Source of the DNA: Escherichia virus TH22
Sequence record: MT446396.1
Length of the DNA stretch: 64,000 nucleotides
Reading direction: 5' to 3' (one strand)
Shown one piece after another: positions 3,345 through 40,983 of this stretch. Within the stretch, counting starts at the first letter, position 1; every line of letters starts with the position of its first letter. The position numbers and the translations under genes were made by a program. Under the pieces are notes generated by a model. It saw nothing but the letters and a program-made list of their open reading frames with translations, did not search any database and had not been told where the DNA came from.

Positions 3345-4031
3345 ATGAACGGTCCTAAAACTTTTAATAGTCAAGCTCGTGCAGTAGGTGGTTTTGCCGG
3401 CGGTATTTCTAATGATAAAATCAAGAACGAGCCTATGTTCTTCAACTGTAGTTTAGAATTTGCTTATAATAACGGCGGTCCTATTACTCGCAGCTTCATC
3501 ATGAACTTGCCAGATGATTGGAACACCGACCAGGTTGTATTTGATTCTCGGGTTCATATGCTGATGCCTGGTTGGTATCCTGCTATCCCAGGTTATCACC
3601 ATGACGATGTACCACGCCCGGATATTCCGGTTGGTCAACACTTTATTACTGCAGGGCAACCTGATTATGATAATCCTCGTTACCATTCTGAACATATTCT
3701 TGGTCTTGTTAACGCTGATGTGTGTCCTACTTATTTTGCAACCGGAACTGCACAATTTAGTCAGATTCCTGAAGGCGAACTTATCTATCGCCAGTGGCAT
3801 AAAGAAGTTCTGGAAAAAATTGAGTCCAATGAATTAACCAAGTGGGATGCTCCTGACCGCACGTTGCTCCAGTTTGATTGGCAGACATGGCATACAGGTT
3901 CTCGCGCAGTAAGTAACGGTTGGCGCTGGTTTGGTCGCGTGTCTCGTAATACCGACCGTGTTAAAAAGATTACAAATGAAATCCGCGTTAATGCTCAAGT
4001 ATATCTGGAATTCCCTATGGAGGGATGGTAA
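3345..4031 (+). CDS. hypothetical protein
   Basis: Early promoter (GTGTACAA -35, CATAAT -10) and SD upstream; 228 aa. Confidence 0.5.
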   Translation: MNGPKTFNSQARAVGGFAGGISNDKIKNEPMFFNCSLEFAYNNGGPITRSFIMNLPDDWNTDQVVFDSRVHMLMPGWYPAIPGYHHDDVPRPDIPVGQHFITAGQPDYDNPRYHSEHILGLVNADVCPTYFATGTAQFSQIPEGELIYRQWHKEVLEKIESNELTKWDAPDRTLLQFDWQTWHTGSRAVSNGWRWFGRVSRNTDRVKKITNEIRVNAQVYLEFPMEGW

Positions 4032-4606
4032 TGATGTATGAACCCGGTTGCATGGGTGATATGAAAGGTCCACAAGGATGTGCAGGTATTCCAGTTCCAA
4101 GAGATGAATTTATGATTACCAAAAGATATTGGGCAGACCTTGATGATGGCGATGAAGGAATCAAGGTGGAAAACGTTGATTGGTCGCGATGCAATCGCCA
4201 TATGAAAGAGCTTTTAATTGAGGAATATAAAATGAAGCACATCGTTAAAGGTTGGCAACCAGAACCACATAAAGAACAAACACCTGACCCATTGATTTGT
4301 TATAGTGAAAAATATGGTTTTCGTACATGGAGCGATGAATATGACAAGTTAGTGTGCTCCAGATTCTATGCCTGGATGGGAATACTATTTTTTCCAATCC
4401 TGTGGTTTTTCCTGACAACGAAAAATGACTTGCCAGTTTGCATATTCGGGGCAGCAGTGACTGCGGCCATTGCAGGTATTATCGCCTCATTTTTATGGAC
4501 TGCGATTATTGAAGTACCTTTTCGTATTTCTAAAGTTAAAAAGGTATATGACAATATCACAAAGAAAAATACATTGAACTCTTTTATTGAGGAATGTCGC
4601 AAATGA
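4025..4606 (+). CDS. hypothetical membrane protein
   Basis: C-terminal hydrophobic segments (WMGILFFPILWFFL, IFGAAVTAAIAGIIASFLW). Confidence 0.45.
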   Translation: MVMMYEPGCMGDMKGPQGCAGIPVPRDEFMITKRYWADLDDGDEGIKVENVDWSRCNRHMKELLIEEYKMKHIVKGWQPEPHKEQTPDPLICYSEKYGFRTWSDEYDKLVCSRFYAWMGILFFPILWFFLTTKNDLPVCIFGAAVTAAIAGIIASFLWTAIIEVPFRISKVKKVYDNITKKNTLNSFIEECRK

Positions 4607-4839
4607 GTATTGCAATTTATATTAAATCCGAGTCATGTGATTCTTACCTGTATTCCTATGATAAAGGTACGCCCGAAGTTGAAATCAAAGATGATTTAGA
4701 AATTGACCTGGACTTGTTCCGCCCAATTTCTGAATACAGAGTTCAAACTTCTAGTAGTGAATCACCTTCAACAGAAACACGCATTGAAATTATTATGGCT
4801 GAAATCTTTAAAAAATCTTGGGAACGTGATGATGAGTAA
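4603..4839 (+). CDS. hypothetical acidic protein
   Basis: ATGA overlap with upstream gene; start could be 4594. Confidence 0.4.
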   Translation: MSIAIYIKSESCDSYLYSYDKGTPEVEIKDDLEIDLDLFRPISEYRVQTSSSESPSTETRIEIIMAEIFKKSWERDDE

Positions 4840-5290
4840 GAAAAACGTGGTGAAAGAATTATCTGCTGGCATTATTTTCATGACTGAAGATAAAGAGTTA
4901 TTCATGGGGCGCGTGACTGGTTCTCGCAAACCGGGTATGCCTGCGCATAAATGGGATATCCCTAAGGGTCATGTTGAAGCCGGTGAATCCCCGATTGAAG
5001 CAGCTATGCGTGAATGTGAAGAAGAAACAGGCTTTACCCAGTATGACCCGGCATTCTTAAAAGACCTAGGCGAGTTCCGTTATTCAGATAACAAAAACCT
5101 TCACCTGTTTTTGTACACGGCCCCGGTCGAGCATGAGCAGTTCAGACATAGTAAATGCTCTGCCTATCATACCTTCCCGGATGGTAGTTCGGCCCCCGAG
5201 TTTGATGCATTTGCTCTGATTAAACCGAGCCAATGGCAATACGTAATGGGTAAATCGATGTACAAGGTTTTGACTCAAATTTTCGGATAA
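4829..5290 (+). CDS. nudE: Nudix hydrolase NudE-like
   Basis: Nudix box GHVEAGESPIEAAMRECEEETG; sits directly upstream of lysozyme e as in T4. Confidence 0.8.
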   Translation: MMSKKNVVKELSAGIIFMTEDKELFMGRVTGSRKPGMPAHKWDIPKGHVEAGESPIEAAMRECEEETGFTQYDPAFLKDLGEFRYSDNKNLHLFLYTAPVEHEQFRHSKCSAYHTFPDGSSAPEFDAFALIKPSQWQYVMGKSMYKVLTQIFG

Positions 5291-5808: not shown

Positions 5809-5864
5809 GTTTACATCTCCAAACGATAGGGTTATAATGACCCTATCAACTACGGAGAACAAAC
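5809..5864 (+). promoter_or_regulatory. early promoter with -10 inside inverted repeat, upstream of denV
   Basis: GTTTACA -35, TATAAT -10 within GATAGGG..CCCTATC, leader ATCAACTACGGAG. Confidence 0.55.
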
Positions 5865-6281
5865 ATGACTCGCATTAATTTAACCCTGGTATCTGAACTT
5901 GCTGACCAACACCTTATGGCTGAATACCGTGAGCTTCCTCGCGTGTTTGGTGCTGTTCGTAAGCATGTGCAAAATGGTAAAAAGGTGTCTGACTTTAAAA
6001 TCCCATCATCTTTTCTTTTAGGAACTGGTCATGTCACCTTCTTTTATGATAAGCTTTTGTTCCTTAAAAACCGTCATCAAGAACTTATTGCTGAATGTTT
6101 AAAGCGAGGGTTTAATATAAAAGATATTTCTACCCAAGATTTAAATGATATTCCTGATGAATGGAAGAATGATTATCAACCATCAATCTGGTCAATTGAA
6201 ATCAGTCAATCCAGACTGAATGAGAAAATTTCTCAAAAGCCTACCTGGTACAAATACTATGGGAAAGCTGTGTACGCTTAA
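5865..6281 (+). CDS. denV: endonuclease V (pyrimidine dimer DNA glycosylase)
   Basis: 138 aa; [35 protein letters not shown] near-identical to T4 endo V. Confidence 0.95.
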
Positions 6282-6329
6282 CTAAAAAGGTTGTATAATG
6301 ATTTTATCAACCAAACAATGGAATATAAA

Positions 6330-6644
6330 ATGAAAACTTATCAAGAATTTATTACTGAATCTACTCAACAACGTGTTGAAGGTGGTTATGTCTGGATTGA
6401 ACAGTTAACCCCACCAAGTGAAACAAGCACTGGTTCGTGGAAAATTACTGTTGATGGTCCTGGTGGAAAACGCAAGACTATTAAAGAAATTAAAGGTTAT
6501 TATGACGAAGCTAAATCATGGGCTGGTAGTCATGTAATGCAGATTAAAATTGCAAACCCAGATAACGTTCATGCGGCAAAAGCGTTCCGTCGCATTGGTA
6601 ATAAACTTTATGATGCGTTTTTGCGCGATTTCCCTAAAGCTTAA
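6330..6644 (+). CDS. internal protein with capsid-targeting sequence
   Basis: N-terminus MKTYQEFITES matches T4 IP capsid-targeting sequence MKTYQEFIAE; track ORF starts 39 nt earlier. Confidence 0.7.
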   Translation: MKTYQEFITESTQQRVEGGYVWIEQLTPPSETSTGSWKITVDGPGGKRKTIKEIKGYYDEAKSWAGSHVMQIKIANPDNVHAAKAFRRIGNKLYDAFLRDFPKA

Positions 6645-6657
6645 CTAAAGAGCCATT

Positions 6658-6921
6658 ATGAAAACTTATCAAGAATTTATTACTGAATCCGCTAAAGCTC
6701 CTGCTGGTTCCTTTAAAGTCCGCGCCTTCGCTGGTGATGCTGAAGACTTTGGTACCATGAAGCGCAATGGTTATTCTTTCTTTGGCGGCGATGGCAAAGA
6801 AATTGTTACCTATGCAAAACGCCGCGAAATCGCATTTGTGGTTGCTGGTAAGAAAGTTGATGTTGACGATATTGAATGGGACTTTGAGACCTTTGGTATT
6901 GTTTCTGGCGGTAAAGCGTAA
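6658..6921 (+). CDS. internal protein with capsid-targeting sequence
   Basis: N-terminus MKTYQEFITESAKA; cargo domain unrelated to the neighbouring IP. Confidence 0.75.
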   Translation: MKTYQEFITESAKAPAGSFKVRAFAGDAEDFGTMKRNGYSFFGGDGKEIVTYAKRREIAFVVAGKKVDVDDIEWDFETFGIVSGGKA

Positions 6922-7063
6922 TAATTAAATGGGAATAACCTGGACCTCAATCCTGAGGGACTCCCGCCAACCTGTAATAAGGTCGAGCCCGCGGCGGTAA
7001 TGGGTAATACAGGAAGGGATGAATTAATGTGCCAAGGAACGGCCCCACAACTAAGAGACAACT

Positions 7064-7591
7064 ATGAAATTTTTAACTCCAATTTATCTAACCTTAATGC
7101 ACGCCTTCGCTGAACGCGCCATTGAACGCTTAGATTCAGACCAATACACCTGGTATGAACCTACTTCAAGAATGCAAGAGTTTGGTACTCTTAGACTTGA
7201 TGGTGGAAGACAAACAGGTAAAACAAGTGCCATTGCACAGTTCGCCGCAGATTGGGTTTCTAAGGGTAATGATGTGATTGTTATGTCGAGTTCTTCGCAT
7301 CGCTCACGAGAAATCTGTGATATAATAAAGCGGGTTTCTAAAGCACAACCACATCTTAATGTTGAACGACCTGGTTTTGTTGTATATGATACCGTTCGTT
7401 CATTTTTAGACGAAGATAATTTCCATAAGTATCGTGGGTTATCTGTTACTCGATTATTGATTATTATCGAAGAGCCTATTCGCCTTCCAGCGATGGATAA
7501 GTTCTATGAAGCTTACCAGGTAATGCTGAATAAATTTATGTGTCAAGGTTCTAAACCTCTGCCGTTATTCTTTGTGATAGGAATGCAATAA
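7064..7591 (+). CDS. hypothetical protein with P-loop-like motif
   Basis: GGRQTGKTS (Walker A-like) and LLIIIEEP (Walker B-like). Confidence 0.45.
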   Translation: MKFLTPIYLTLMHAFAERAIERLDSDQYTWYEPTSRMQEFGTLRLDGGRQTGKTSAIAQFAADWVSKGNDVIVMSSSSHRSREICDIIKRVSKAQPHLNVERPGFVVYDTVRSFLDEDNFHKYRGLSVTRLLIIIEEPIRLPAMDKFYEAYQVMLNKFMCQGSKPLPLFFVIGMQ

Positions 7592-40329: not shown

Positions 40330-40469
40330 AGATGATTACAATTATTGTACTGATTGCATTTTTTGGTATGTCAATCTATTGGGCAATAATGACTCCACAT
40401 ATGATTCCAACTTTAATTTTGGGTTGGGTATTTTTGGGGCTCCAAGCCCGCTATGAATGTTTTAATTGA
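40326..40469 (+). CDS. hypothetical small membrane protein
   Basis: 47-aa hydrophobic ORF, ATGA overlap with imm. Confidence 0.4.
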   Translation: MKMITIIVLIAFFGMSIYWAIMTPHMIPTLILGWVFLGLQARYECFN

Positions 40470-40479
40470 GGAAAATACA

Positions 40480-40983
40480 ATGAAAAAGTTAGCTATCGCA
40501 GCTGTTATACTGTTATCTGGTTGTGCTTACCAGGGTGATGTAGTTAATGCCAGTGAGATTGGTAAAGCGCGAATTGCTGCAGACCGTCAGGTGCATAATG
40601 GTTCCTTTGATTTCAAAGGTGGTACTGGACTTATCTACAAACGCGACAACAATCAATGTGGAAATAACTGCGCGAAATATGCTCAACAAGAAATTGAGTA
40701 CAAACGCGAGCAAGCTGCGAAGCATGATGAAGTAATCGCTAAATTAGAAGCAGAAACTAAGCGACAAAATGACTTGGATACTGTTAACCAGATTTCACAG
40801 GTCTGTATGTCATACATCAATATGCAGATAAACATCATGCGCGCGGAAGCTTATCAGGCAGCAGAGGCTGGTTCTCCAAAAGCTAATGAGTATCGCGATA
40901 TGTATCAGCGTTCTGCTCAAAACCGTCTGAGCTATATTAATAAATGTGTAGCTAAAGAGAAAGCACGCCAAGGTATTAACTAA
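40480..40983 (+). CDS. putative lipoprotein
   Basis: Signal peptide with lipobox (MKKLAIAAVILLSGC); SD GAGGAAAAT. Confidence 0.55.
   Translation: MKKLAIAAVILLSGCAYQGDVVNASEIGKARIAADRQVHNGSFDFKGGTGLIYKRDNNQCGNNCAKYAQQEIEYKREQAAKHDEVIAKLEAETKRQNDLDTVNQISQVCMSYINMQINIMRAEAYQAAEAGSPKANEYRDMYQRSAQNRLSYINKCVAKEKARQGIN

Follow-up and report, generated by a model that had tools for sequence, protein, structure and literature searches.

Two small adjacent genes of Escherichia virus TH22 (sequence record MT446396.1), open reading frames (ORFs) A and B, probably encode two of its T4-type internal head proteins, which would be loaded into the head, cleaved and injected, likely as inhibitors of a single target each. 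They lie on the plus strand of the 64,000-nucleotide (nt) stretch analysed here (the window), and both open with the same capsid-targeting sequence (the tag), which is followed by unrelated cargo parts.

6330..6644, plus strand: ORF A; ATG at 6330; 104 amino acids (aa); Ip10 family, phrog_3966; predicted internal head protein precursor
6330..6359, plus strand: capsid-targeting sequence of ORF A, MKTYQEFITE; predicted gp21 cut after Glu10, before Ser11
6658..6921, plus strand: ORF B; ATG at 6658; 87 aa; RB69 ORF125c/VR7ORF127c family, phrog_2667 ('internal head protein')
6658..6687, plus strand: capsid-targeting sequence of ORF B, MKTYQEFITE; predicted gp21 cut after Glu10, before Ser11

ORF A and ORF B carry the tag of T4 internal head proteins

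The original prediction, made from the letters of the window, read both ORFs as opening with MKTYQEFITES. This N-terminus was seen at the coordinates listed above, and the translations agree. It had further been taken for the capsid-targeting sequence of T4 internal proteins, and the assignment held: nine of the ten tag positions match T4 IPII and IPIII, key residues included. Both T4 proteins begin with MKTYQEFIAE, so that the sole change in ORFs A and B is Ala9 to Thr. Searching the 64-kb window with a degenerate DNA pattern for MKTYQEF gave two matches and no more; shuffles predicted 0.01. The first ten residues of IPIII suffice for head loading in T4, also when the protein is foreign, as with GFP (PMC9026906), and mutagenesis of the IPIII tag ascribed head targeting mainly to residues 4 and 7 and gp21 cleavage to residues 8 and 10 (PMC9026906). 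Tyr4, Phe7, Ile8 and Glu10 are retained in both ORF A and ORF B. The change falls on the freely varying 'x' of the Ile/Leu-x-Glu cleavage site, position 9; 11 residues (A, T, N, S, I, F, K, L, V, E and R) occur there among 93 unique tag-bearing ORFs collected from related loci.

The 2.3 kb around the gene pair showed an identity of at least 99.9% (rounded to 100.0% by Megablast) to Escherichia phage UPEC01 (MW233709.1; Tevenvirinae, Gaprivervirus, VR7-like). According to its own annotation, the UPEC01 record encodes the portal gp20, gp67, gp68, the gp21 prohead protease, the gp22 scaffold and gp23 at 128.5-132.3 kb, outside the window. Since the key tag residues are kept and UPEC01 encodes this head machinery, everything that the T4 head-loading pathway requires at the sequence level is present for A and B, and packaging and cleavage are predicted. 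The predicted mature form of ORF A has 94 aa and an isoelectric point (pI) of 9.6, with 15 Lys+Arg in 94 residues; that of ORF B has 77 aa and a pI of 6.2.

The two genes belong to phage families with named members

ORF A and VR7 Ip10 have the same sequence (100% identity), and SP18 Ip10 matches ORF A at 99%; ORF B likewise equals VR7ORF127c (100%) and shares 72% identity with RB69 ORF125c. The 2.3-kb region as a whole aligns to vB_EcoM_VR7 and SP18 at about 94% identity. The curated VR7 record names the A homologue "ip10, putative internal head protein Ip10" and the B homologue "VR7ORF127c, similar to RB69 ORF125c". Ip10 of VR7, SP18 and 'Pol', named in surveys of T-even ip loci, is of the same family as ORF A, with no difference of substance. 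Full-length homologues of ORF A were present in 189 phage records, at 99-100% identity in Gaprivervirus, about 72% in Mosigvirus and 48-54% in Karamvirus and Enterobacter phages. RB69 ORF124c and the Mosigvirus and Karamvirus homologues all fall in this family, the RB69 copy with an altered, shortened C-terminus; in one metagenomic relative the A-type domain makes up the C-terminal half of a 149-aa protein. ORF B has full-length homologues in 208 phage records, RB69, Salmonella S16 and STML-198 among them, with identity down to 29%, and several of these records (S16, STML-198 and several coliphages) are labelled "internal head protein". Mosigvirus, Gaprivervirus, Karamvirus and S16-like phages, and not T2, T4 or T6, are the main carriers of both families.

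A and B are already deposited, and named or annotated as putative internal head proteins, and the concept is established; the finding is already known. What had been proposed for the pair is the established model and fits the tag, the locus and the families. It is not new, A being the named Ip10 and B being annotated elsewhere.

Labels in the UPEC01 record are loose. ORF A appears there as "internal head protein III", ORF B as "hypothetical protein" and the homologue of vs.8, the gene downstream of the pair, as 'IpIII internal head protein'; this mislabelled product is a P-loop protein of phrog_1488 (UPEC01 stretch 3472-4745). For the homologue of ORF A, the UPEC01 record sets the start 12 nt (4 codons) ahead of MKTYQEF. 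A mechanical list of ORFs in the window places the start of ORF A at an upstream TTG, at 6291.

The cargo parts differ from each other and from T4 IPI-IPIII

The claim that the cargoes differ mutually and from T4 IPI-IPIII was upheld by BLASTP, PHROG assignment and profile comparison, none of which gave any similarity. With the tag removed, BLASTP within a six-sequence database returned no E-value below 0.05. The PHROG assignments were phrog_3966 for A (E = 1.8e-32, residues 1-103), phrog_2667 for B (E = 9e-21, residues 1-85), phrog_7857 for T4 IPII, phrog_5341 for IPIII and phrog_4363 for IPI. Cargo-only family alignments compared by hhalign reached a probability of at most 2% for A or B, both mutually and against 14 other families. 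VR7 Ip7 and ORF B have phrog_2667 in common. A kinship on this ground was rejected, as cargo-only BLASTP and hhalign showed nothing; the tag is probably what places both in one PHROG. Searches of Pfam, NCBIfam and PDB sequences gave nothing significant for A or B, and HLA matches for ORF A (E about 0.1-1) were dismissed as noise.

An exhaustive HMMER search with the A cargo against 1.84 billion cluster representatives recovered one true relative cluster (Karamvirus type, 49% identity), on which ground the ORF A family is taken as narrow and phage-only. Four long repeat proteins from the same search were rejected as homologues, their scores being inflated by summed repeats. The stretch GGYVWIEQ..PPS.TSTGSWKITVDGPGG of ORF A (cargo residues 10-70) weakly resembles residues 426-486, a repeated domain, of P0009, a bacterial protein of 596 aa that looks secreted; the identity is 39%, and three repeats inflate the score behind E = 6.6e-6. 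This similarity is probably due to chance or composition.

Tag and cargo behave as modules of the ip loci

The gene order in the window is e, denV, A, B, vs.8, with denV (5865-6281) upstream of the pair and the vs.8 homologue (7064-7591) downstream. The interval between denV and vs.8 is the classical ip locus, which is also found in VR7, RB69, IME08 and T4. VR7 has a third gene, ip7, downstream of its B homologue (VR7 stretch 4619-5108). This gene is absent from the window, where the first ~50 nt past ORF B (6922 on) are replaced relative to VR7, not simply deleted. The order in RB69 is denV, B-type, A-type, ORF123c (RB69 stretch 1950-2944). RB69 ORF123c has Ala in place of Glu at tag position 10, a substitution that should block processing.

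UPEC01 carries at least seven tag-type internal protein genes, namely A, B and five in a second ip locus next to 57B. This second locus (MW233709.1 159,301-160,865, outside the window) consists of five consecutive small ORFs with the tag-like N-termini MNIKTYNEFLAE, MKTFNEFFNE, MQTFHEFLVE, MKTYQEFINE and MKTYQEFITE, in this order; promoter and stem-loop cassettes stand before three of them. The third, with MQTFHEFLVE, encodes a paralogue of ORF B at 38% identity; its diverged tag has Tyr4 changed to Phe and Ile8 to Leu, both conservative replacements, and keeps the other key positions. Since a paralogue so distant bears a diverged tag, tag and cargo evolve separately. When cargoes that carry the exact tag in IMG/VR were clustered, 17 families resulted; a relaxed tag pattern gave at least 29 sequence-unrelated cargo families in the loci examined. 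On the minus strand of IMGVR_UViG_3300032320_002701, a 388-aa protein with the N-terminus MKTYQEFIIE contains a domain resembling cytidylyltransferases (PF01467; 29.3 bits, cutoff 21) and is a predicted enzyme cargo on a capsid-targeting tag. Other tag-bearing families reach 282-610 aa.

At the DNA level, the first 32 nt of ORFs A and B are identical (6330-6361 = 6658-6689), and this shared gene start gives recombination a handle for cassette swaps. A common tag with unrelated cargoes is a known modular design, the "hyperplastic ip locus" picture of the literature; the internal proteins of T-even phages have been described as diverse defence proteins of which the capsid-targeting sequence is the only common part (PMC3012670).

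A and B as injected inhibitors: proposed route and weighing

In the route that we propose for A and B, the MKTYQEFITE of the precursor would bind the scaffolding core of the assembling prohead, as has been shown for the tag of T4 IPIII. The gp21 prohead protease would then cleave past Glu10, at the Ile-x-Glu site, to yield a basic mature A of 94 aa and a near-neutral mature B of 77 aa. Both would remain in the head beside the packaged DNA and, by analogy with T4, would be ejected with it into the next host, ahead of any phage gene expression. There, the most likely job of each would be to block one specific host nuclease at DNA entry. That injected internal proteins are anti-defence effectors, as the original prediction also had it, is a published model (PMC3012670) and has been shown for all three T4 proteins (PMC12373910). 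T4 Ip1, Ip2 and Ip3 each inhibit one different variant of the GmrSD type IV nuclease with no cross-protection (PMC12373910, 2025), Ip2 and Ip3 acting on the GmrSD enzymes of ECOR21 and ECOR17 (PMC12373910).

A and B share with T4 IPII and IPIII a tag identical at 9/10 positions, the same Ile-x-Glu site, small size, a locus near e and denV and the same expected route of packaging, processing and injection. They differ in that the cargoes are unrelated, the T4 genes lie between e and denV whereas A and B lie past denV, and B is not basic. T4 IPI*, an inhibitor of the CT596 GmrSD enzyme with a solved nuclear magnetic resonance structure, resembles what is predicted for A and B: it is injected from the head, loses an N-terminal propeptide by cleavage and carries a small (alpha/beta) cargo. 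Unlike A and B, IPI has a longer, diverged propeptide of 19 residues (MKTFKEF...ITE) and sits in the other ip locus; it has no sequence similarity to either. No similarity of A or B to the proven GmrSD inhibitors IPI*, Ip2 and Ip3 was found by BLASTP, PHROG or hhalign. This does not speak against a function towards GmrSD, since those three are themselves mutually unrelated.

Several observations weigh against A and B as injected, single-target inhibitors. When ip4-10 were assayed against 15 GmrSD groups, no reproducible inhibition was obtained (PMC12373910); the identity of the tested ip10 with ORF A is unconfirmed. That screen used T-even challenge phages only (PMC12373910), and we count it as weakening the anti-type IV version of the proposal, along with the near-neutral charge of mature B, the second Ile-x-Glu site of A and the lack of gp42 and beta-glucosyltransferase homologues, all given below. 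The searchable literature yielded no virion proteomics for the VR7/RB69 Ip10 or ORF125c families. Mature B is near neutral (pI 6.2), as compared with a pI of 9.0-9.7 for T4 IPI, IPII and IPIII; a basic pI is typical of T4-type internal proteins, not strictly defining, and A fits it (9.6) while B does not. ORF A contains a second Ile-x-Glu site within its cargo (IKE, residues 51-53; LKE in the Mosigvirus homologue), and because of this site the protein might be cut further there. The cargo checks that came with the original prediction succeeded in part: profile comparison separated the cargoes as unrelated (hhalign at most 2%), and structure prediction gave no fold. The word-indexed homologue search had supplied AlphaFold2 with only two clusters for A and five for B, and the models from these shallow alignments had a predicted local distance difference test (pLDDT) score of 47.2 (A) and 55.6 (B). 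With these low-pLDDT models, Foldseek found no match below E = 0.5 in the PDB; the TM-score never exceeded 0.46 and was mostly below 0.35.

The state of the phage DNA adds to these points. Neither the window nor the UPEC01 record (169.8 kb) yielded a homologue of T4 gp42 (dCMP hydroxymethylase) or beta-glucosyltransferase by tblastn, and the curated annotation of VR7 lists neither gene 42 nor a-gt or b-gt where T4 has them. Since no homologue was found, this phage may lack glycosylated DNA, the substrate of the known Ip-targeted enzymes. Genes for DenA, DenB, Alc, the gp56 dCTPase and Arn-like proteins are annotated, which suggests some replacement of cytosine in the phage DNA. The place of T4 gene 42, between gene 43 and uvsX, is taken here by a lipoprotein-like 176-aa ORF (40453-40983).

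An alternative that we regard as unlikely is that A and B are packaged and injected for a physical role, in charge neutralisation, condensation or as an ejection aid, rather than to inhibit a defence. T4 heads hold about 1000 internal protein molecules, whose lysines touch DNA phosphates (PMC3012670), and the basic charge of mature A (pI 9.6, 15 Lys+Arg/94 residues) would suit such a role, with which the failure of ip4-10 to show reproducible anti-GmrSD activity also agrees. Mature B, at pI 6.2, is ill-suited to charge neutralisation, however, and a bulk physical role needs neither 29 or more unrelated cargo families nor the rapid gene turnover seen in the absence of ip7 here and the swapped order in RB69. 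Moreover, all three T4 proteins proved to be specific inhibitors. We therefore prefer specific inhibition by injected A and B. More tentatively, the Ip10-type and ORF125c-type proteins could be injected to inhibit defence nucleases for which no phage counter-measure is yet known; as part of this same tentative proposal, candidate targets are nucleases acting on DNA that is arabinosylated or carries some other non-glucosylated modification. The proposal draws on the main occurrence of both families outside T2, T4 and T6 and on the restriction of the negative screen to T-even challenge phages.

Transcription signals and the possibility of a cytoplasmic role

6275..6299, plus strand: candidate promoter of the two-gene unit; MotA-box-like CGCTTAA (6275-6281), 12 nt upstream of a TATAAT -10 hexamer (6294-6299), with TG before the hexamer; consensus match only
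6648..6652, plus strand: Shine-Dalgarno-like AAGAG, 5 nt upstream of the ORF B start

The ORF A stop and the beginning of ORF B are 13 nt apart, and because of this short gap the two are probably co-transcribed. By pattern scan, the sole promoter-like signal upstream of ORF A was TGTATAAT with the MotA-box-like CGCTTAA. A sigma-70 scan did not list this candidate promoter, there being no -35 hexamer. The exact T4 late promoter TATAAATA was found neither near nor within the A-B locus by pattern scan; its absence is uninformative, because the ip genes of T4 also have none directly upstream.

An upstream signal of early/middle type and a locus free of late promoters could be taken to mean that the tag is merely inherited, and that A and B are not usefully loaded into heads and act as ordinary early or middle proteins in the cytoplasm. 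This is very improbable. T4 ipI, ipII and ipIII likewise have early-type GTTTAC...TATAxT cassettes directly upstream and no late promoter, yet their products are packaged; the ten-residue tag alone loads foreign proteins in T4, as noted above for GFP (PMC9026906); and the tag is conserved while the cargo of the B paralogue falls to 38% identity, implying selection on the tag. That ORFs A and B are chance frames or pseudogenes is refuted by their conservation, with full-length homologues in at least four genera (tblastn E 1e-22 to 1e-65), full-length hidden Markov model matches and a ribosome-binding site before the start codon of each. 

A strong early-type promoter lies upstream of denV at 5810-5850 (TTTACA, 17 nt, TATAAT; 11/12 matches), its -10 hexamer being placed in a hairpin loop (GATAGGGTTATAATGACCCTATC, 5825-5847). 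This combination of promoter and stem-loop has the same design at denV here, at ipI, ipII, ipIII and denV of T4 and at the ipI locus of UPEC01. The cassette upstream of denV resembles the mobile regulatory cassettes reported in T4-type phages (PMC2839356).

A conserved non-coding element lies between ORF B and vs.8

About 6938-7045 (core 6969-6987), plus strand: conserved non-coding element within the 142-nt gap 6922-7063

A more unusual feature than the A/B gene pair is the element that follows it. The gap 6922-7063 has 49% G+C, compared with 40% for the window, and a single mismatch to UPEC01. Phage records with the element number 885, from Tequatrovirus, Mosigvirus, Dhakavirus, Kanagawavirus and Klebsiella T4-like phages, compared with only about 200 records each for A and B; its nt identity among them is about 80-85%. 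The core occurs also in Vequintavirus. In one Vequintavirus and one metagenomic contig, it stands beside or inside a tRNA cluster. Bacterial genomes lack it, save for 15 chance 17-mer matches, and its sequence was not found in the literature searched. The invariant part is AACCTGTAATAAGGTCGAG, followed by 3-10 variable nt and then CGGTAA. Judged from 57 unique copies, the element appears to consist of a 5' stem-loop domain, an invariant small hairpin ACCU-GUAAUA-AGGU and a 3' hairpin. The sequence of the 5' domain is wholly different in at least six lineages yet keeps folding, and within one lineage a few changes are compensatory.

Reading the element as a small ORF was rejected, in view of 1-nt indels and a stop codon in a frame that is only partly conserved. 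It contains no tRNA, no variant matched any Rfam family, and it has no similarity to T4 rnaC or rnaD. RNAalifold gave a weak -8.2 kcal/mol on a MAFFT alignment, in which the variable stems were left out of register. Folding z-scores against shuffles were marginal: in five of ten lineages the 5' domain scored between -1.7 and -2.9, and the whole element came out near zero. As the strong signal is sequence conservation, the element may be a protein recognition site, in DNA or RNA, a reading that fits as well as a structured RNA.

In T4 (NC_000866), the element falls inside the annotated 5' end of vs.8 (genome about 64,840-64,935), and T4 vs.8 is annotated with 219 aa as compared with 175 aa here and in VR7. 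Because a conserved non-coding element falls inside its annotated 5' end, T4 vs.8 has probably been given a start too far upstream, the likely true start being the ATGAGAACATTTT common to the other phages.

Discussion

For this window, the value of the analysis is confirmation and context, not discovery. Delivery of head-loaded proteins along with the DNA extends beyond the T4 type: injected anti-restriction virion proteins such as P1 DarA/DarB, and ejection proteins with a propeptide in giant phages, SPN3US for one, follow the same logic and act before transcription. As in T4, a prohead protease removes the propeptide in the giant phages; the targeting signals, proteases and protein families differ from those of the A/B system.

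If A and B do inhibit defence nucleases that still lack a known phage counter-measure, they would represent two new inhibitor folds with new targets. Internal proteins act before phage expression, and each therefore probes a host defence that attacks incoming DNA. The approximately 29 other cargo families, A and B included, form a ready list of candidate inhibitors, which is relevant to choosing or engineering therapeutic coliphages.

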